Source: a virus
Direction: 5' to 3' (one strand)
Virus record (IMG/VR): IMGVR_UViG_3300013232_000047
Coordinates: 1 to 64,000 of that record
Length of the DNA stretch: 64,000 bases
The position numbers and the translations under genes were made by a program. The notes beneath the pieces were generated by a model, which searched no databases, was not told the origin of the DNA, and saw nothing but the letters and a program-made list of their open reading frames with translations. Shown piece by piece: positions 4,478 to 61,304 of the stretch; the first letter of the stretch is position 1, and each line of letters opens with the position of its first letter.

Positions 4478-4750
4478 TTAGTTTAAGTGTGAAGGGCTGT
4501 TTTTTGTATTTTTGAATCTCAAGGTAGCTTCTCCCCTGAAGATTATGCGCAGTATAAGGCGACTGAAGTGCCCGGCTAAACGAATACGGTTCCAAAACGT
4601 CTTGGCGGTGAAGCGGACGTGATGAGCTTCAGAGGTAACTTTGTGTTCAGGTGTGTCGCGCATTAAGCGGTCAGCTTCCGCCAACAGCCTGTCAGCTTCG
4701 GCGAAAACTCTGTCGAACCGTTCCCATATTACGCGGGTGCTTTTAATCAC
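4478..4750 (-). CDS. hypothetical protein
   Basis: 90-aa ORF, GTTCTT motif 12 nt upstream of GTG. Confidence 0.55.
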   Translation of the reverse strand: MIKSTRVIWERFDRVFAEADRLLAEADRLMRDTPEHKVTSEAHHVRFTAKTFWNRIRLAGHFSRLILRIIFRGEATLRFKNTKNSPSHLN

Positions 4751-4779
4751 GCAATCAAGAACTGAAAAGATACTGGTTT

Positions 4780-4815
4780 TTTCTGGTTGACTGCTTTGCT
4801 GGATCTGTTTACTTT
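4780..4815 (+). promoter_or_regulatory. sigma70-type promoter
   Basis: TTTCTGG-TTGACT(4787)-N17-TACTTT(4810). Confidence 0.65.
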
Positions 4816-4836: not shown

Positions 4837-4912
4837 GCTACCGTGCCTGATTTGGTATAGGGACTCGTCTCTAAAACGAAGGATGTCGGTTCGATTCCGA
4901 CCGGTAGCACCA
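4837..4912 (+). tRNA. amber suppressor tRNA, anticodon CUA
   Basis: 76-nt cloverleaf: GCTACCG/CGGTAGC-ACCA, anticodon loop CT-CTA-AA, T-loop TTCGATT. Confidence 0.85.
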
Positions 4913-39590: not shown

Positions 39591-39748
39591 AAATTTTTTA
39601 GTTTACAACGCCTACGGTATGTGTACGCTTCATCTATCGTTACATTTAAGAACTGAATATATGCGAGAAGCACTAAACACCGCTTGGGCTGAAACAGGGG
39701 CAACAGGCTATGTGTTTTGATAATCTCTCCATACAAATTCTACCGTTT

Positions 39749-41743
39749 ATGCTCGAAATAAATACTCGTATAGTGGAACTCCGCAATCTCATTCGCCAGT
39801 ATGACTACTTCTACTACGTGGTGGATGTTCCTAAAGTTGAAGACCATATCTACGATAAGCTCTACAAGGAACTGCAGGATCTGGAGACTAAGTACCCTGA
39901 ATTCTCCGATGTGAATTCACCAACCAAACGCATCGGTGGCATAGGTTCAAGCGGCTTTATTAAAACCAAGCATGATCGGAGAATGCTTTCGCTTCAGAAC
40001 GTCTATAACGCAAAGGAAGTTTTGGACTATTTTGGCCAAGGTGAGGAGGGAGTCTTGGAGCCAAAAATTGATGGCTTATCATTGAAGCTTATCTACAAGG
40101 AAGGAGAGCTGTACAAGGCTGTTACGAGGGGTAACGGTGAATTCGGCGACGATGTTACAGAGAATGCCCGGACTATTGTCAGCATTCCGCTGGTGTTAAC
40201 CAGTCCTACTGATATCGAGGTTACAGGTGAGGTCTACATGACCTATTCCGTGTTCAACAGGCTGAACGAAGAGCTGGAGGCAGAAGCACTGGAACAGTTC
40301 GCTAACGCTCGCAACGCTGCAAGTGGAACACTGAAACTCAAAAGTTCGGCGGAAGTTGCCAAGCGTAATCTGTCCTTTGTTGCGCACGGTAGCGTTACGG
40401 AATTTACGGAAATTGAGACACAGATGGAGCTTATTAGCATGTTGGAAAACTTAGGTTTTCAGACGACGTTCATGCTGCCAGTGCTTTCATCGTGTCCTAC
40501 GGTGACTCGATTACTGACATTCGATAATGCGTACGATATTCAAAAAAGCATAGAGAATGCGGATATAAATCGGAAGTTTCTTAATTTGGCGACGGATGGT
40601 TTGGTATTCAAGCTTAACAACTTGAAAAAACAGCGTGAATTAGGCGAAGGCACAAAATCTCCTCTATGGGCTTGCGCTTACAAGTTTCCGCCAGAGCGAA
40701 AATCTACAACCCTTCTCGACGTTACCCTTCAGGTTGGCAAATCAAGTAAGATTACACCGGTCGCAGAACTGAAACCTGTCCTTTTAAGCGGGACCTTGGT
40801 TAAACGGGCGAGTCTTTGTAATCAGGACGAAATTAATCGTCTTGGTGCTAATATCGGTGATGAGGTCTATGTTGAGAAGTCGGCAGAAATTATTCCCAAG
40901 GTCATGGGGGTCGCGAATAAGGTAACGGGTGGTGTCTATAAAATGCCCGACGTCTGTCCCTGCTGCAGGACCAAGCTGGTGAATCCAAGCGGCAAAGTAG
41001 ACTGGTTCTGCCCTAACCGTGACTGCGATGATCAGGTGTACGCCCGGCTGCGCCACGCAACAGGTAAGGCTGCTCTCGATATGGACGGATTCGGAGCGTC
41101 TATGATCCGTGAACTGATGACGCATGGCGTTCGTAAACTTTCAGACATATTCTTGCTTGATAACCTCACTTTTCTAAAAAATTCGGCTCGTAAAAAGCTT
41201 TTGGAAGGGCGCATTGCAGCAAAGAAACAACCGTTTTGGCGACAGCTGCACGCGTTGGGCATCGAAGGCATTGGCCAGACAACTTGCCAAGAAATTGCTG
41301 CTCAGTGGACTTCCCTTATTTCAGTCTTCGATGAGCTTGACAGGTTCAAAGAATTGTTCGGCGAAGTAGCCTTTAATAGTTTCCTTGAATACTACGCGTG
41401 TGAGGAACAAGAGCTGAATACGCTAGAGGCGTGCGGACTCACGTTTGAGACGGAACGGAACGGTATAGGAAGGCTCGCTGGAAAAGTATTTGCCATCACC
41501 GGAACCTTGATGTCAGGCAGTCGCGATCAAGTGATGCGTCGCATTGAGGCTGCAGGTGGAATGGTGAAAGCCAATGTTAGCGCGAAGTGCCATTATCTGG
41601 TTCTAGGCACAGACGCTGGTGCAATCAAGCCGGGCAAAGCGGAGAAGCTGGGAGTACCTGTCATAACAGAAGAACATCTGTATGAGATGATAGGTGAAGC
41701 GATGCCGGTTGCTCCGGAAGTAGAACCAGAAAGGGAGTATTAA
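39749..41743 (+). CDS. ligA: NAD-dependent DNA ligase
   Basis: EPKIDG, TRGNG..G, RN.ASG, Zn-finger, HhH, BRCT (FAITGTL). Confidence 0.97.
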   Translation: MLEINTRIVELRNLIRQYDYFYYVVDVPKVEDHIYDKLYKELQDLETKYPEFSDVNSPTKRIGGIGSSGFIKTKHDRRMLSLQNVYNAKEVLDYFGQGEEGVLEPKIDGLSLKLIYKEGELYKAVTRGNGEFGDDVTENARTIVSIPLVLTSPTDIEVTGEVYMTYSVFNRLNEELEAEALEQFANARNAASGTLKLKSSAEVAKRNLSFVAHGSVTEFTEIETQMELISMLENLGFQTTFMLPVLSSCPTVTRLLTFDNAYDIQKSIENADINRKFLNLATDGLVFKLNNLKKQRELGEGTKSPLWACAYKFPPERKSTTLLDVTLQVGKSSKITPVAELKPVLLSGTLVKRASLCNQDEINRLGANIGDEVYVEKSAEIIPKVMGVANKVTGGVYKMPDVCPCCRTKLVNPSGKVDWFCPNRDCDDQVYARLRHATGKAALDMDGFGASMIRELMTHGVRKLSDIFLLDNLTFLKNSARKKLLEGRIAAKKQPFWRQLHALGIEGIGQTTCQEIAAQWTSLISVFDELDRFKELFGEVAFNSFLEYYACEEQELNTLEACGLTFETERNGIGRLAGKVFAITGTLMSGSRDQVMRRIEAAGGMVKANVSAKCHYLVLGTDAGAIKPGKAEKLGVPVITEEHLYEMIGEAMPVAPEVEPEREY

Positions 41744-42225: not shown

Positions 42226-42570
42226 ATGAGCACTACTAAAATTGAAAAAGCAGCACGCAAGCTCTGCACGCATACGGTTATCTTCACTGACATCACAGAC
42301 AAGCTGGTGGCTGTTCGGGCGATGCAGGGACGCACTACTGGAGCCATTGCGCACGAGTTCGGCCTCACAAAGTCAGAGGCTCAGTACCGTATAACTAAGG
42401 CGCAGAAAAGCCTGAATACGCGCTTCCGCGCTGACTACCGCAATGGAGAAGGAGAGCTAGCTGCGAAGATGCTTGCAGCGACTACCAACATTGCAAGGCA
42501 GGTCGTGGAAAAACAGATTGCTCCGAAGTTTATTCCTTTCGCTCGTTCAGGGGTGCCACGTACTCCTTGA
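42226..42570 (+). CDS. HTH-like DNA-binding protein
   Basis: GRTTGAIAHEFGLTKSEAQYRI. Confidence 0.65.
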   Translation: MSTTKIEKAARKLCTHTVIFTDITDKLVAVRAMQGRTTGAIAHEFGLTKSEAQYRITKAQKSLNTRFRADYRNGEGELAAKMLAATTNIARQVVEKQIAPKFIPFARSGVPRTP

Positions 42571-42668
42571 AAAAGATTCTTTAAAAAACTTGTAAAAAGT
42601 TCTTGCGCGATAGCGAGTGTATACAGTAACGTGTATCCACGGTCAGGCACTAACGCTCTGACCCAATA

Positions 42669-42803
42669 ATGACGACAATGAATTTAGCAGCGAACATTAA
42701 AGACCGGACAAGTATGAAGGGGTATCCCCTGCATAATTGGCAGGTGTTTGCTCCGTCATCGTTGTGTGTCCGTACGGAGGAACCAGTTGGGGTAGGCGGG
42801 TAG
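42669..42803 (+). CDS. putative attenuator leader peptide (44 aa, all 20 amino acids)
   Basis: MTTMNLAANIKDRTSMKGYPLHNWQVFAPSSLCVRTEEPVGVGG*; last codons complementary to terminator 5' arm. Confidence 0.7.
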   Translation: MTTMNLAANIKDRTSMKGYPLHNWQVFAPSSLCVRTEEPVGVGG

Positions 42804-42823
42804 GACACAGGAAAATACTTTCC

Positions 42824-42862
42824 AAAACCCGCTACCCGAAAGAGTAGCGGGTTTTTTATTTT
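42824..42862 (+). terminator. intrinsic terminator (attenuator)
   Basis: AAAACCCGCTAC-CCGAAAGA-GTAGCGGGTTTT-TTATTTT. Confidence 0.88.
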
Positions 42863-42985
42863 CAGTTTATGCGCCGTAAGGCGACGAGAGCCGGGCCGAT
42901 AATCCGGTAAACAACCACCGTGAAGTAAACCTGTGGATGCTGAAAAGCAAATGGGTGTTTGTTCTTTAGTTAAGTTATACGATCC

Positions 42986-43285
42986 TTGCGCCGCAATCCA
43001 CATACTCTGGTGGACGGCGCAGGGGCCGTATTTACTTTTGTGAAACCAAGTATTGCAGCCGCAGCTATCCGTATAGGCGAACGAATTTTTGCTGGTAAAA
43101 CCCAGTTTGAGGCTGTCGGCAAGCTTGTCAGAACGCCCAATGTCAGTGCCGAGGAGAAAATCGAGATGCTACTAGCGGGCGAAGCCGGGTATGTTACCGA
43201 CGACGGCCAGTTCGTAAACACCGATGATGCTTACGAGATTTCGCGGCAAGCGGGTGTTGTTTCCAATGCGGGTGTAGCTCAATAG
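42986..43285 (+). CDS. hypothetical protein (start unclear; in-frame ATA at 42977 follows TAGTTAAG)
   Basis: protein-like ORF (GYVTDDGQFV..DAYEI); end overlaps tRNA-Gly. Confidence 0.5.
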   Translation: MRRNPHTLVDGAGAVFTFVKPSIAAAAIRIGERIFAGKTQFEAVGKLVRTPNVSAEEKIEMLLAGEAGYVTDDGQFVNTDDAYEISRQAGVVSNAGVAQ

Positions 43286-43341
43286 TAGAGCGCGTGCTTG
43301 CCAAGCACAGGACGACGGTGCGATACCGTTCACTCGCTCCA
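43268..43341 (+). tRNA. tRNA-Gly(GCC)
   Basis: cloverleaf, loop TT-GCC-AA, CCA end. Confidence 0.9.
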
Positions 43342-43460: not shown

Positions 43461-43536
43461 GGGGATATGGCGCGACAAGTAAGGCAGTTGCTTTGCAAGC
43501 AATTTCATGTGGGGGCGGTACCCACTATCTCCACCA
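43461..43536 (+). tRNA. tRNA-Ala(TGC)
   Basis: GGGGATA/TATCTCC acceptor with G3-U70, loop TT-TGC-AA. Confidence 0.85.
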
Positions 43537-44062
43537 CTGTTTTAGTAAGTGTAAACTTTCCTGTTTTGGTTAAAAAATGAAGTTCTAAATGACAGGTTGG
43601 GCACAGCACCTGTAGGTTTTTGGGTTTGTTATTTTTTCTATTTTTGTCTAGGTGGTGTACTTCTAGCACTTCTAAGTAACGGTTATATCCACATTTAGCA
43701 CATTTTGCACCATGCACGCGCAGTCCCACTTGTCTGTAAGCAGAGGCTCCTCCTTTAAAGTGCCGGAGAAGTTCTGGGTAATTTTCGGTACATTGTGCTT
43801 CGTCTCTGCATTTTCTGGAGCAAAAGTGTAATCCTGATTTGCTTAGACGTAGCCGTTTATTCGTTCGGTTAAAGTGTTTGCCACAAAGGCTGCATTCGAT
43901 TTGAACTTGTTTTTGGCTGTTTATTCCACTGCACTCTCTTGAACAGAATTTTTGAGCTAGAAAATGTTTTGGCACCCAAAAAGGTTTATCACAAATTTTA
44001 CAGCATTTTTGGTGCAGGTTTCTGGCTTTTCCATCGTAATCTTTAGACGTTTTAGCTTGCAT
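43505..44062 (-). CDS. HNH homing endonuclease with Zn-finger repeats
   Basis: C..C...FCSREC repeats; EVHHLDKNRKNNKPKNLQVLCPTCH. Confidence 0.9.
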   Translation of the reverse strand: MQAKTSKDYDGKARNLHQKCCKICDKPFWVPKHFLAQKFCSRECSGINSQKQVQIECSLCGKHFNRTNKRLRLSKSGLHFCSRKCRDEAQCTENYPELLRHFKGGASAYRQVGLRVHGAKCAKCGYNRYLEVLEVHHLDKNRKNNKPKNLQVLCPTCHLELHFLTKTGKFTLTKTVVEIVGTAPT

Positions 44063-44135
44063 CGTGTAGATATAACGTAGCACGCAAAGCCAGTCTTTTC
44101 CACCAATTTATGAGGTGGTAAACGTTAAAATAGTC

Positions 44136-46850: not shown

Positions 46851-46861
46851 CTCATTTTAAC

Positions 46862-46939
46862 GGGACGTTAGCTCAGTCCAGTCAGAGCGCTCGCCTGTCT
46901 AGCGAAAGGCCACGGGAGCGAAGCCCGTACGTCCCGCCA
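46862..46939 (+). tRNA. tRNA-Asp(GTC)
   Basis: cloverleaf, loop CT-GTC-TA. Confidence 0.88.
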
Positions 46940-46955
46940 ATTGCGTAGATAGAGC

Positions 46956-47138
46956 ATGGCATTGACTGTACTCAAAGGTAAGAAGTTCAGTGTTTCTGTC
47001 AAATCGAAGGATAAGCGGCCAGATTACGTCAAAGTAGAACTGGTTGCAGGTGACAGAAGCCGAAAAGTATCACATCATCTTACACCGGCAGAGTGTAAGG
47101 TTTTTGCCTTCGCACTGCAGAAAGCCTCTAAAGCATGA
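46956..47138 (+). CDS. hypothetical protein
   Basis: 60-aa ORF with GTAGATAG motif 11 nt upstream. Confidence 0.6.
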   Translation: MALTVLKGKKFSVSVKSKDKRPDYVKVELVAGDRSRKVSHHLTPAECKVFAFALQKASKA

Positions 47139-47584
47139 TGATGAACGCACTTGAATTAGCACAGAAACTTACAGAAGCACGCGAAATTGTAGACGAAGCT
47201 ATCGTAAAAAATTGCCCAGTGCCGGTATTTTATGCCGATAAGGATGGAAAATTGTGCCGGGTTAACAACCTTTTGGGAAAATTACTGGCTGCAGATCCTG
47301 ATGATATTTTGGCTGATCGTTGGTTGAAGTTTGTAAAAGCAGGCAAGAAAGACTGGGAAGCTACCCTAAGAGCTAAACAAGATTCGACCAAAGTCTATTT
47401 GAAGCTTAAAGCAAGTGATGGAAGAGAGTTTGCTGTTTTTGTGAGTTTGATTCGATTAGTGAATGGTGGTTATATCGGATTTGTTTTACCAATTTGCGAG
47501 CATCCTACGGGGTGCCCGATGCATGGTTTCCTGCTTCACAATGTTGAGGATGATGGAACCAATGCAGCCCAAGTGCGTGGCTGA
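47135..47584 (+). CDS. PAS-domain protein
   Basis: PVPVFYADKDGKLCRVN...L....DDI...W..FV...LKASDG. Confidence 0.7.
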   Translation: MMMNALELAQKLTEAREIVDEAIVKNCPVPVFYADKDGKLCRVNNLLGKLLAADPDDILADRWLKFVKAGKKDWEATLRAKQDSTKVYLKLKASDGREFAVFVSLIRLVNGGYIGFVLPICEHPTGCPMHGFLLHNVEDDGTNAAQVRG

Positions 47585-56771: not shown

Positions 56772-57005
56772 ATGACTACACATGAACTTGTTAATCTGGA
56801 GATTGATTATCTGACTCGCGTAACGAAAAAAGCTAATCGTATACAACTTCGGGAAGAGCTGTTGGCACATCCAGACCGTTTTGCTGACAGTGAACTGGCA
56901 GCCTTGCTGTTCTTTGGAGATGAGTATGAACTGACAGCTTTGTCGTTCTTAGGAAATGAATATGAGTATGAACATTCCAATGCAGCCCATGCCGGTAGCG
57001 TATAG
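56772..57005 (+). CDS. hypothetical protein
   Basis: MTTHELVNLEIDY... portion of track ORF outside tRNAs. Confidence 0.5.
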   Translation: MTTHELVNLEIDYLTRVTKKANRIQLREELLAHPDRFADSELAALLFFGDEYELTALSFLGNEYEYEHSNAAHAGSV

Positions 57006-57306: not shown

Positions 57307-58287
57307 TTACAGAGATGACGGGCCACCCATGCTTGGGTAAAACGAAGCTTTGGGTGGCGGACCTTTAAGCTCAGGAGTCAACCCGGCTTTTTTGGCAGTG
57401 GCGTAATAGTCTTTCCGCTCAGCATGATGATGGCTGCGTATGACTTCAGCTGTTGCCGGGTCGCTGGTGTGCTCACGTTCAACCTTACGTCCAGCTTTCT
57501 TTTCCCAGTCTGAAACGTTCTTTACGTCGGCTTTGGGCTTAAGCGCCTCTGTCTGACGGAGAGTAGCGTAGTGATTTGGATTATCGGCGATGTTTGCTAG
57601 TACAGTCTCTTTGGCTTTTTCGTAGTCACCGAGGCGGCGAAATTCGTAACGAATAGCTGGGGCCAGTTTTATGGCATCAAAAGGTGAGTTCGGAGCTTCG
57701 CCCCATTCGTTTATAAGGAGGTCCATAACGATGTGTCCTGCGCTTTCTTTGGTGTAGAATATGCCGCTGTCTAAACAATCGTCTGCACAGCCTTGGCACA
57801 TAGGGGTGCCTGTTTCGTCCTTCATGTCTGACCGATAAACGGTTGTTCGAGCAGGTTTGTAGCATTTACCTTGGCAGACTGGGCAGCCGGGATCACCACA
57901 TTCGCAGAAATGCGGCGGTGGAATTTTCACGCGCTGCCGGGGCACAGTAGGGTCCAAGGCTTCTTGGGCGGGTTGGGTGAACTGTTTGGCGAGTTTCTGT
58001 AACAGCTCGTTTTTGATATTTTTGGGCGACTGCTTTTGATTTAAAACATAGTCTCTGGCGTTGAAGTCGCTACCTTCGGTTTCGTTAGGAATTATCCAGC
58101 CTCTGCTTTCTAATTCCTTTTGAAAACCTTGGTCTATGACGGGTCCAGCACCAACTCCGTTAGTAGCCCGGCCCCACACCTCCGGTGACAGGTCCATAAC
58201 CTGAATGTGCCAGCCATGTTCTGGCCAATACTGTCCTTTAGCAGGGTACTGTTTGCCATCGTACTGGTTTTTTACCAAAAAGTTCAT
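57307..58287 (-). CDS. modular putative virion protein
   Basis: SDFNARDYVL, Cys-rich module, ESAGHIVMDLLINE, VEREHT...HHH.E..DYY. Confidence 0.75.
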   Translation of the reverse strand: MNFLVKNQYDGKQYPAKGQYWPEHGWHIQVMDLSPEVWGRATNGVGAGPVIDQGFQKELESRGWIIPNETEGSDFNARDYVLNQKQSPKNIKNELLQKLAKQFTQPAQEALDPTVPRQRVKIPPPHFCECGDPGCPVCQGKCYKPARTTVYRSDMKDETGTPMCQGCADDCLDSGIFYTKESAGHIVMDLLINEWGEAPNSPFDAIKLAPAIRYEFRRLGDYEKAKETVLANIADNPNHYATLRQTEALKPKADVKNVSDWEKKAGRKVEREHTSDPATAEVIRSHHHAERKDYYATAKKAGLTPELKGPPPKASFYPSMGGPSSL

Positions 58288-58305
58288 TTGATTTAACTAC
58301 ACATT

Positions 58306-58389
58306 GGGGATGTGGTTTACCCAGAATAGCAGATGGGACTCATTCAGATTGAGACAGCCTTGGAGGTGCGATTCCTCTTATCCCCACCA
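58306..58389 (+). tRNA. tRNA-Leu(CAG), atypical D region
   Basis: acceptor GGGGATG/TATCCCC-ACCA, CTCA-TTCAGAT-TGAG, T arm. Confidence 0.65.
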
Positions 58390-58397
58390 ATTTAAAT

Positions 58398-58474
58398 GCC
58401 CACGTAGCCCAACAGCAAGAGGCGCTAGTTTTAGGAACTAGCTGTTGTCGGTGCGAATCCGACCGTGGGTACCA
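58398..58474 (+). tRNA. tRNA-Leu(TAG), short variable arm
   Basis: loop TT-TAG-GA. Confidence 0.85.
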
Positions 58475-58670: not shown

Positions 58671-58716
58671 TTGACAGTTAAAACATGTTTGAATACATTG
58701 GTTGTGTTCTTTGAAA
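58671..58716 (+). promoter_or_regulatory. sigma70 promoter followed by boxA-like element
   Basis: TTGACA-N17-TACATT then TGTTCTTTGAAA. Confidence 0.75.
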
Positions 58717-59644: not shown

Positions 59645-60088
59645 GGGGCCGTAATGGTTTCGATTTACGAAAACTTACGGTTATGACATGTCGAGGATGG
59701 CTATCGGCCTCGTTAAGTAGTAGCCACAAGTCAAATGCTGACAACAGTGATGACAATATCCTGAACATCGACAGTTTGCTGGCTCAAGCAGAGTCCATCG
59801 TGAATAACGCGGACGAAGTGTTGGCCCAGTTTCCTGTCGAACAGGAACTTGCTGCAGCCTGAAGTGCTGTAGGCGGTGCAGTGGAGACTCCTGCTATCCA
59901 TTGTATCGCTAAACTAGCAGGGAAGTGTTCTACCGAGCACAGTCGGTGGGCTTGTCGATAAAGCTTAATCGAATCCTGCAGTTACTTTTTAGCTATTTAA
60001 AGCCTGCAGGTATAAAAATAGAGAAGCATGTGTAAGTAACCGGCGAGAGGTCGTAAAGAAAGGGGTTCGACTCCCCTCGGCTCCACCA
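59645..60088 (+). ncRNA. ssrA: tmRNA
   Basis: GGGGCCG..GGTTTCGA 5' end, G3-U70, tag ORF 59737-59862 ending ELAAA*, 3' GGTTCGACTCC..CGGCTCCACCA. Confidence 0.93.
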
Positions 60089-60663: not shown

Positions 60664-60726
60664 TTGTCGGGTCGAACGTAAAGGGTTATCTCTAAAAATC
60701 GCCCTTTGCCACCACTTACCTGACAA
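60664..60726 (+). ncRNA. minimal Y RNA
   Basis: TTGTCGGGTCGAA-C-GTAAAGGG-TTATC...CCCTTTGC..CACTTACCTGACAA. Confidence 0.78.
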
Positions 60727-60732
60727 GAGCTT

Positions 60733-60890
60733 AAAAGTGTCGAGAGACCGCGTGTCGCTGGTTCAATTCCAGCCGTGTTCGCAGTAGCTCAGCGGTAGAG
60801 CAGCGCCGGAAGCGTGTGTCGCAGGTTCAAATCCTGCCTGTAAATGAACATGTAGCTCAGTGGTAGAGCAGCGAGTTCTCTCGACATTTT
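60733..60890 (+). ncRNA. double tRNA-elbow RNA
   Basis: order T arm, D arm, hairpin, T arm, D arm inside a 14-bp closing stem. Confidence 0.8.
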
Positions 60891-60941
60891 TTGTCGTTTT
60901 TTCTAGTTGACGGAAAACACGTGATTCGATAGCTTAGTCCT

Positions 60942-61304
60942 ATGAAAAGAATCTACCTAAGCAAAGCAGGTGAAGTAAGGATGCCGACTATCGACGAGCG
61001 TAGTCACTACGGAATGGCTAAAACTATTCTCGGTCCTTCTTGGGTAGGTGACACAGAAGATGCCTATACTGCTATGTGGCTGCTTGGCTGGGTGCGTGTA
61101 GCAGAATATGATGACACAGTTTACGCTGAAAAGTACATAAATGGAGAACCTGTAAAGTGGGTTGATCTTCCAAGAGCACAACGTGAATGGCTCGAAGACA
61201 GAAAGTTAGAAGGTAAGCAGGTCATGTGGAACGACACAGTGTTCGAGTCAACGCGTGAAGGAAAACAATTTGCAGGTGATATTGTTAAGGCTCTTTTGCA
61301 GTAA
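60942..61304 (+). CDS. hypothetical protein
   Basis: 120-aa ORF after TTGACG promoter; ends FAGDIVKALLQ. Confidence 0.7.
   Translation: MKRIYLSKAGEVRMPTIDERSHYGMAKTILGPSWVGDTEDAYTAMWLLGWVRVAEYDDTVYAEKYINGEPVKWVDLPRAQREWLEDRKLEGKQVMWNDTVFESTREGKQFAGDIVKALLQ

Follow-up and report, generated by a model that had tools for sequence, protein, structure and literature searches.

Analysis of the region upstream of the tRNA genes in an uncultured jumbo phage, represented by the IMG/VR virus record IMGVR_UViG_3300013232_000047, points to a putative regulatory element that combines a short open reading frame (ORF) with an intrinsic terminator. The stretch of DNA that was analyzed, hereinafter the window, comprises the first 64 kb (64,000 nucleotides, nt) of this 120,022-base record, the completeness of which is estimated by CheckV at 53%, implying a jumbo phage genome of roughly 225 kb. 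Comparison with related loci suggests, with a probability that we put at about 0.7, that the element is a ribosome-mediated (leader-peptide) transcription attenuator that heads the tRNA genes in a clade of uncultured jumbo phages. The anatomy of the element is conserved among these loci, its reading frame is conserved as well, and three of its helices covary. From this arrangement, we infer the direction of the switch and slow decoding as the signal: slow ribosomes probably increase the production of tRNAs. A translated leader with a 3' end that doubles as the antiterminator strand, located ahead of tRNA genes, had been proposed in an earlier note on this DNA; this proposal is strongly supported by 18 aligned sequences and by an additional, distant locus, L035.

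Conservation of the leader among related loci

The related loci (2 viral and 34 metagenomic) were fetched via an alignment (A1) of the homologs of the 114-amino-acid protein that is encoded next to the leader (38 homologs, 51-100% identity); the gene for this protein is always located directly 5' of the leader. A blastn search with positions 42571-43270 as the query against 33 related loci matched 23 of these, with 70-84% identity, and the conservation of the intergenic DNA is about equal to that of the adjoining protein. The 10 loci that yielded no match include six distant ones (L004, L005, L033, L036-L038), L023, L024, L026, which has just 227 bases downstream, and L035, where a leader was subsequently spotted by eye. 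The alignment of leaders (A2) consists of 18 distinct sequences, namely, the version in the window and 17 other metagenomic versions; the counts below refer to these 18 sequences, except for those that are given for 20 aligned rows.

The order of the elements that is common to these loci includes the gene for the helix-turn-helix (HTH)-like protein, a promoter-like block, a 5' hairpin, the short ORF, the terminator, a structured spacer of ~190 nt, and the gene for tRNA-Gly(GCC), followed by tRNA-Ala and more tRNAs. All 18 aligned sequences have retained both the ORF and the terminator as well as the alternative pairing between them, and so has L035, in which the flanking protein is only 42% identical and the design of the leader matches while the letters differ. 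No homolog was found that keeps the terminator but has lost the ORF or its codon diversity.

Searches beyond these loci were negative. The leader DNA and the 114-amino-acid protein had no match in the 'phages' collection, and scans of IMG/VR with the 114-amino-acid protein and with the DNA ligase detected no close relative. A scan of IMG/VR for exact matches to the terminator arms retrieved a single candidate (L003), which was rejected as a homolog given that it is an unrelated terminator behind an unrelated gene. A covariance model (R1, built from alignment A4), the consensus structure of which contains 11 pairs only, recovered the window's own leader and none in two IMG/VR records that encode distant homologs of the 114-amino-acid protein; thus, the leader does not accompany this gene in distant phages.

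Terminator and alternative pairings

The terminator scan identified a 12-pair stem followed by a U tract, in agreement with the strong intrinsic terminator described earlier at 42824-42862, and a terminator is found in 18 of the 18 aligned sequences, with hairpin energies between -12.6 and -22.6 kcal/mol. The end of the ORF, GGGTAGGCGGGT, forms 11 pairs, with one bulged G, with ACCCGCTACCC (42827-37) in the 5' arm of the terminator, which confirms that the last codons (42790-42801) are complementary, with one bulge, to this arm. In most relatives, the final codons, AGGUAAGCGGGU, are complementary to the 5' arm ACCCGCUUACCU without any mismatch, and the group that includes the window has its own version of the pairing. 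The pairing covaries in L022, where the sequence is GUGGG in the antiterminator strand (region 2) and again in the 3' arm, with CCCAC in the intervening 5' arm; in L006, one base is deleted on each side of the pairing; and in L035, GACCUGAGCG pairs with CGCUCAGGU (11 base pairs, -20.1 kcal/mol), with the TGA stop codon within the strand. On fixed columns of the 18-sequence alignment, 91.4% of the cells of the antiterminator helix are paired, with changes on both sides at 3 of the 11 pairs. The tested structure in its entirety is 83.3% paired, compared to at most 58.4% for slid partners, and in the main helix of the 5' hairpin (helix 3), changes on both sides are observed at all five pairs. The fold of the 241-nt stretch is better than those of all 200 shuffled versions (z = -3.5). 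The stop codon is located 21-28 nt 5' of the 5' arm of the terminator in all 18 sequences, so that the terminator remains uncovered when a ribosome terminates translation.

A further helix, which had been missed in the earlier note, is formed by GUGUGCCC within the ORF and GGGCACAC just past the stop codon, and encloses region 2; in the window, GUGUCC (42766-71) pairs with GGACAC (42803-08). We refer to its two strands as a and a'. RNAalifold applied to A2 recovered the terminator and little else because the columns of the MAFFT alignment are off the structural register around a'; hence, duplex energies were calculated per sequence. When each strand is confronted with its own partner and with the partners from the other sequences, the energies are -13.8 and -11.3 kcal/mol for a:a', -20.3 and -18.3 kcal/mol for the antiterminator, and -19.6 and -16.5 kcal/mol for the terminator, and in each case 0 of 10000 permutations were as good; the test includes 15 distinct sets of the 18, and the sequences are related, so that these counts overstate independence. 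The coordinates of the elements of the leader, together with those of other features of the window, are listed in Table 1.

Table 1. Features of the leader region and its surroundings (coordinates in the window)
Feature	Position	Strand	Remarks
Promoter-like block	42603..42632	+	TTGCGC at 42603-08, TGTATACA at 42618-25, TAACGT at 42627-32; A-rich stretch 5' of the block
5' hairpin GGTCAG...CTGACC	42641..42663	+	Minimum free energy (MFE) fold; near the likely transcript start
Leader ORF	42669..42803	+	ATG...TAG, 44 sense codons; stop codon TAG at 42801-03
Small hairpin GGGG-UAU-CCCC inside the ORF (helix 4)	42719..42729	+	RNAalifold; 86.5% of cells paired; changes on both sides at 2/7 pairs
Strand a, TGTGTCC (Cys-Val codons)	42765..42771	+	Encloses the antiterminator strand together with a'
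Antiterminator strand (region 2)	42790..42801	+	Last four codons and first base of the stop codon; GGGTAGGCGGGT
Strand a', GGACACA	42803..42809	+	Overlaps the stop codon by one base; MFE fold and duplex energies
Intrinsic terminator	42824..42862	+	12-pair stem at 42824-42855, then TTATTTT (terminator scan)
Structured spacer	42863..43025	+	boxA-like GGGTGTTTGTTCTTTA at 42953-68; hairpin at 42984-43024, then U-rich run
tRNA-Gly(GCC)	43268..43341	+	First gene of the tRNA island; ARAGORN and Rfam
Gene for 114-amino-acid protein	42226..42570	+	Weak HTH-like match (Pfam HTH_10, E 0.0077, below the cut-off)
ORF of the size of an NAD-dependent ligase	39710-41743		Upstream of the leader
Sigma-70-like internal promoter	58671-58699		Followed by TGTTCTTTG
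tmRNA	59645-60088		Rfam RF00023, 107 bits; within the tRNA island

Evidence of translation of the leader

Translation of the leader ORF is well supported by the comparison of the aligned sequences. The frame is free of stops in all 18 sequences up to a conserved TAG or TAA codon, whereas the +1 and +2 frames each contain stops in all 18. Distinct gap runs in the alignment are divisible by three in 10 of 11 cases within the ORF; in the flanks, this applies to 4 of the 13 runs in the 5' leader and to 2 of the 10 that fall in the stretch from the stop codon to the U tract. The sole exception within the ORF is located at the stop codon. Among nine representatives, the median pairwise ratio of nonsynonymous to synonymous substitution rates (dN/dS) is 0.40, with values below 1 in 33 of the 36 pairs. 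The aligned start codon is ATG or GTG in 20 of 20 rows. This shared start corresponds to the second in-frame ATG of the window (42678), yielding an ORF of 41 codons; accordingly, of the earlier description of a 44-codon ORF at 42669-42803 with all 20 amino acids and 37 different codons, the counts hold, and the start is better placed at 42678, from which 37 distinct codons and 20 amino acids are still encoded.

The leader lacks a strong Shine-Dalgarno sequence; GGAG precedes only 5 of the 72 long ORFs in the 120-kb record, which hints at a host with weak usage of such sequences. The leader peptide matched no family in Pfam or PHROG, and its best-conserved part is the FAPSSLCxRSTEEP block.

Amino acid and codon completeness

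The leader ORF of the window encodes all 20 amino acids with 37 distinct codons among its 44; the only codons that are repeated are ATG and GGG (three times each), and ACG, ACA and AAT (twice each). Stop-free windows of 44 codons from the 120-kb record contain, on average, 29.0 distinct codons (standard deviation 2.9); at least 37 distinct codons are found in 0.12% of such windows, all 20 amino acids in 0.87%, and both in 0.02%, and among the 578 ORFs of 35-60 codons, the leader ORF alone satisfies both. The comparison with 44-codon windows that the earlier note had called for thus marks the leader as exceptional; this diversity in a single genome could have been picked post hoc among many windows, and the weight of the observation rests on the relatives. 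All 20 amino acids are present in 18 of the 20 aligned rows, with lengths of 39-45 codons and 34-38 distinct codons, and the leader of L035 has 45 codons, 35 of them distinct, and 19 kinds of amino acids.

Of the 14 distinct peptides, 12 are complete, compared to 6.3 (standard deviation 1.4) after shuffling within columns, and 0 of 20000 shuffles reach 12. This excess arises because the single-copy residues are located at lineage-specific places: Trp occurs in HNW or HNLGW, Asp in IKD or EPD, and Phe in FAP or SFHN. The number of distinct codons exceeds that obtained by synonymous resampling with the codon usage of the genome in 15 of 15 distinct ORFs (individual P from 0.004 to 0.25). Shared ancestry weakens the shuffle, permutation and codon-resampling tests, in which independence is overstated. 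Tentatively, the near-complete amino acid set and the high codon diversity might themselves be under selection, although we would not wager on it. The broader idea, a universal sensor of tRNA supply that would build on the principle of the trp attenuator and in which selection would keep every amino acid and maximal codon variety within ~42 codons, is to be taken as a speculative possibility. If this is true, depletion of almost any host tRNA would delay the ribosome and switch on the replacement tRNAs of the phage; the source of the depletion could be starvation, a mismatch in codon usage, or anticodon nucleases, the link to the latter being a conjecture.

Proposed mechanism and points against it

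Under the attenuator model, transcription would start at ~42640, from the conserved promoter-like block, and the leader of 41-44 codons would be translated behind the advancing polymerase. The last four codons and the stop codon would comprise the antiterminator strand, able to pair with the 5' arm of the terminator ~24 nt further on. A ribosome that reaches the last ~5-8 codons or the stop codon in time would mask region 2 and a', so that the terminator would form and transcription would stop at ~42860. With a lagging ribosome, the antiterminator would form instead, and the polymerase would read through the structured spacer into tRNA-Gly and the later tRNAs.

The calculated energies bear on these steps. 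In the full-length leaders, the terminated conformer differs from the readthrough conformer by -5.0 to +11.4 kcal/mol; in L006, L010, L011, L027 and L032, the latter has the lowest energy or equals the lowest. When the 3' arm is yet to be made, the antiterminator conformer is 2.8-15.9 kcal/mol below the a:a' conformer in all 18 sequences. With a ribosome footprint of 30 nt masked, the 5' arm remains paired with region 2 for A-site positions up to about codon -9 in the window and about codon -7 in L008; its release requires that the A site has reached the last ~5-8 codons or the stop codon. This result follows the logic of the earlier note, in which a timely ribosome leads to termination and a delayed one to readthrough. 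The earlier suggestion that stalling at any codon frees the strand is favored by this early folding and by the retention of the all-20 set; the conserved a:a' helix speaks against it. Any-codon sensing is plausible.

Several observations weigh against the attenuator model or limit its reach. The a:a' helix forms first and, being conserved, could trap the RNA such that early stalls would lead to termination as in trp; it may force termination unless the ribosome is on strand a, and with such a trap, sensing would be limited to ~10 codons, Ser-Ser-Leu-Cys-Ala/Val-Arg-Ser-Thr-Glu-Glu. There is no tandem amino acid repeat in the leader and no amino acid occurs more than four times, that is, regulatory codon runs are absent, and therefore sensitivity to any single tRNA would be low. 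Completeness is not universal: the leader of L014 encodes 19 kinds of amino acids (no Asp), that of L006 18 (no His and no Val), and that of L035 19; in L006, the only His was lost through a compensatory change in an RNA hairpin. Variability at the third codon position is 7.5, compared to 5.8 and 6.0 at the first two, and such a mild difference indicates that the leader sequence is constrained as RNA, too. The promoter-like block was not called by the sigma-70 scan, its -35 element matching at 3 of 6 positions only; the promoter is not a canonical sigma-70 site. Nor is the terminator the sole control point, given the second hairpin with a U run in the spacer and the internal promoters. No RNA run is on record as containing this stretch. 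A 550-nt metatranscriptome contig (X19) from a relative similar to L032 covers the spacer and tRNA-Gly and contains no transcript ends; its loose end resembles the sequence of the relative just past the terminator. This contig is compatible with a readthrough transcript of the relative but may be DNA, and carries little weight.

Alternative explanations

The alternative that survives best, while still being unlikely in our estimate, is a classical attenuator in which a:a' is the counterpart of the trp 1:2 hairpin and sensing is confined to ~10 codons. Readthrough would then occur only if the ribosome covers strand a and not region 2, that is, within Ser-Ser-Leu-Cys-Ala/Val-Arg-(Ser)-Thr-Glu-Glu, and the complete amino acid set further upstream would be incidental or would stem from other constraints. 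The preference of a for its own partner, with none of the 10000 permutations reaching it, fits this version, and so does the order of synthesis, whereby a:a' would form ahead of the 5' arm of the terminator; a conserved U-rich run ~12 nt past a' would suit a pause site, and the FAPSSLCxRSTEEP block is the best-conserved part of the peptide. Against these points stand the greater stability of the antiterminator compared to a:a' in all 18 sequences before the 3' arm is made (by 2.8-15.9 kcal/mol) and the persistence of all 20 amino acids and of codon diversity across the ORF, which this version leaves unexplained. Moreover, the two helices, a:a' and the antiterminator, could be present at the same time in a pseudoknot, a fold that is beyond ViennaRNA.

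It is improbable that the leader is simply a gene for a small protein with an independent function, flanked by a promoter and a terminator that serve this gene, in which case the tRNAs would result from constitutive leak-through or from a different promoter. Such a gene would be expected to show purifying selection (median dN/dS 0.40), good conservation of the C-terminal half of the peptide and a strong terminator, as is the case here. A plain terminator, however, needs no covarying copy of its 3' arm upstream, such as those in L022, L006 and L035, the peptide matches no Pfam or PHROG family, and no promoter-like block was seen ahead of the covarying spacer, which starts ~15 nt past the U tract.

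A nascent-peptide arrest leader of the tnaC, erm or vmlR type, in which a specific peptide sequence would stall the ribosome upon exposure to a small molecule or to an agent that targets ribosomes, and not in response to tRNA supply, appears quite improbable. The peptide is conserved beyond the needs of a pure codon sensor, and the architecture is that of antibiotic-responsive attenuators as we understand them; the conserved stretch overlaps conserved RNA helices, though, so that conservation may be at the level of RNA, the arrest motifs familiar to us were not recognized in it, and tRNAs as the regulated genes fit the sensing of decoding supply. Finally, a protein- or ligand-binding RNA switch that is not translated, with an incidental open frame, would account for the unusually good fold (z = -3.5), the several conserved hairpins and the only mildly elevated variability of the third codon position, but is highly improbable in view of the gap runs divisible by three (10/11 in the ORF and 6/23 outside), the open frame and the stopped other frames in 18/18, dN/dS below 1 in 33/36 pairs, the conserved ATG or GTG start, and the absence of any Rfam family at threshold.

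Promoter-like block and upstream genes

TTG and TAnnnT are found at the promoter positions in 20 of 20 aligned rows, with 18 nt between TTGCGC and TAACGT, so that the possible promoter previously assigned to these hexamers is backed by conservation. Between the -35-like and the -10-like elements, beside the gene for the HTH-like protein, lies an invariant 8-base-pair palindrome, TGTATACA. The 114-amino-acid protein, two homologs of which carry the JGI name 'transcriptional regulator', is a possible regulator, and this protein and TGTATACA are a candidate repressor/operator pair. Apart from this gene and the ligase-sized ORF, an ORF of 158 amino acids is located upstream of the leader.

Spacer and boxA-like motif

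RNAalifold applied to 12 sequences of the spacer predicts 47 pairs, 24 of which show a compensatory change; the counterpart in L008 spans positions 1441-1636, and the window lacks one internal hairpin that is found in relatives. The spacer RNA structure begins ~15 nt past the U tract and no promoter-like block was seen before it; the spacer, thus, appears to be a product of terminator readthrough. In the relatives, the spacer ends with the invariant GGGTGTTTGTTCT, a hairpin of 17-18 base pairs and 3-5 U, followed at once by tRNA-Gly; the hairpin and U run before tRNA-Gly might serve as a second checkpoint, in RNA processing or as a nut-like site. Searches against Rfam with the leader and the spacer of the window and five relatives found nothing at thresholds.

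The boxA-like TGTTCTTTA that had been named earlier falls within GGGTGTTTGTTCT, which is invariant in all 12 aligned spacers; RNAalifold pairs part of this motif with an upstream GAGA, without covariation. The sequence TGTTCTTT(A/G) resembles what we take to be the boxA consensus. In the 120-kb record, 6 of the 9 plus-strand copies of TGTTCTTT[AG] are located within the 21-kb island. The longer TGTTCTTTG is repeated on the plus strand of the island, at 56908, 58705, 59482, 59631 and 60597; one copy lies 6 nt past the sigma-70-like promoter, and 6 nt separate the end of another from the tmRNA gene. The tRNA island is bracketed by an exact 23-nt inverted repeat, GGGTGTTTGTTCTTTAGTTAAGT, with copies at 42953-42975 on the plus strand of the window and at 64414-64436 on the minus strand of the whole record, G000 (equivalent to L002 1501-1523); the second copy is located directly 5' of the ATG of a small minus-strand ORF.

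The tRNA island

The gene for tRNA-Gly(GCC) comes first after the leader in 13 of the 24 scanned loci and second, behind a weak extra call, in two more; the remaining 9 gave no tRNA call. In one of these 9, L019, a tRNA-Gly(GCC)-like sequence with unusual D and T arms was seen by eye at 4727-4800 and is missed by default ARAGORN. In the window, default ARAGORN identifies 24 downstream plus-strand tRNAs, to which Rfam adds five at the gathering score, and relaxed ARAGORN (-ps90) yields 34 plus-strand candidates between 43268 and 63956; the many overlapping, implausible calls made at -ps80 were excluded from the counts. These scans did not reproduce the earlier figure of about 38 tRNAs that cover all 20 amino acids: tRNA-Glu was not confirmed, and tRNA-Trp appeared only at the loosest ARAGORN setting, overlapping another call. 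Nor is the island a continuous plus-strand unit: both strands carry ORFs, such as the HNH gene on the minus strand at 43505-44083, and there is at least one internal promoter. Given these minus-strand genes and the internal promoter, the attenuator governs at most the first unit of the island here. In the relatives, the arrays after the leader are compact, for example, 12 tRNA calls in 2.1 kb in L032. Other parts of the island that might harbor leader/terminator cassettes (~46860-47140, 57800-58400 and 60700-60950) contain none of this design.

In the relatives, tRNA-Ala is the second tRNA; in the window, a weak tRNA-Ala(TGC) candidate at 43461-43536 (Rfam 33.1 bits, relaxed ARAGORN only) overlaps the 3' end of the HNH ORF. 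A small ORF is located between the spacer and tRNA-Gly in the window (43040-43285, overlapping the tRNA by 18 nt), in L035 (about 900-1253), and in L014 and L018-L020; it is absent in the other relatives and matches no Pfam or PHROG family. Far from the island, at 4837-4912, there is a tRNA with the anticodon CTA, called tRNA-Pyl by ARAGORN and scoring 54.8 bits with the Rfam tRNA model, which is a possible amber suppressor.

Relationship to known systems and implications

Leader-peptide attenuators are well known from amino acid operons, such as trpL, hisL, leuL and pheL, and include the multivalent leaders of thr and ilvGMEDA. With the leaders of the trp/his type, the phage element shares a short ORF, an intrinsic terminator before the regulated genes, and an antiterminator strand that is masked once a ribosome has arrived at the end of the ORF, and the further upstream helix a:a' of the phage leader resembles the 1:2 helix of the trp leaders. 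The phage leader differs in that regulatory codon runs are absent, its 39-45 codons instead including 34-38 distinct ones and in most cases covering all 20 amino acids, and in that it is encoded by a phage and regulates tRNAs rather than biosynthetic enzymes. The Rfam model of the Trp leader (RF00513) scored 21.9 bits on the window, below the threshold of 41 (E 0.074), and the aligned part is mostly the terminator; the T-box model had no match in the window (E up to 10) or in five relatives (E up to 1). Attenuation of the pyrBI type, in which the leader ORF runs into or through the terminator hairpin and the ribosome itself blocks the terminator, was rejected: the ORF ends before the 5' arm in 18/18.

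In the attenuators of antibiotic resistance genes (erm leaders, vmlR, bmrCD), a leader ORF reports trouble in elongation and relieves a downstream terminator. As we understand these systems, they are triggered when a drug-bound ribosome encounters certain peptide contexts, and the proteins under their control confer resistance, whereas the output of the phage element would be tRNA supply. The boxA-like motif is reminiscent of rrn boxA and lambda nut sites as we know them, being located downstream of the regulated terminator and before a hairpin and structural RNA genes.

To our knowledge, little has been established on how phages time the synthesis of their own tRNAs. A full-text search of the published literature, within the text open to such a search, found no leader-peptide attenuator of tRNA genes in phages or in cells, and the only stress-induced tRNA array that it returned is the trn operon of Anabaena PCC 7120, which is under the control of a protein repressor. 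As described in two reports, this long tRNA array is induced by translational stress, via promoter repeats and the repressor TrcR (PMC8421152, PMC10272220), and in the main text of the first, 'attenuat', 'leader' and 'terminator' do not occur. The likeness is that an accessory tRNA array is turned on when translation is impaired; the difference is that the Anabaena array is controlled at the promoter, and the phage array would be controlled by a leader ORF with a terminator and an antiterminator.

The element described here is short and self-contained, so that its study in a cell-free system is feasible even though the phage is uncultured. A leader-peptide attenuator before a tRNA array would extend the textbook trp/his mechanism from amino acid synthesis to the translation machinery, and the presence of all 20 amino acids in the leader points to sensing that is general and not tuned to a particular amino acid. 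The arrangement also offers a testable link between the tRNA arrays of phages and the depletion of host tRNAs, including that caused by tRNA-targeting defenses. Such an attenuator would provide jumbo phages of this clade with direct feedback from decoding speed to tRNA supply.

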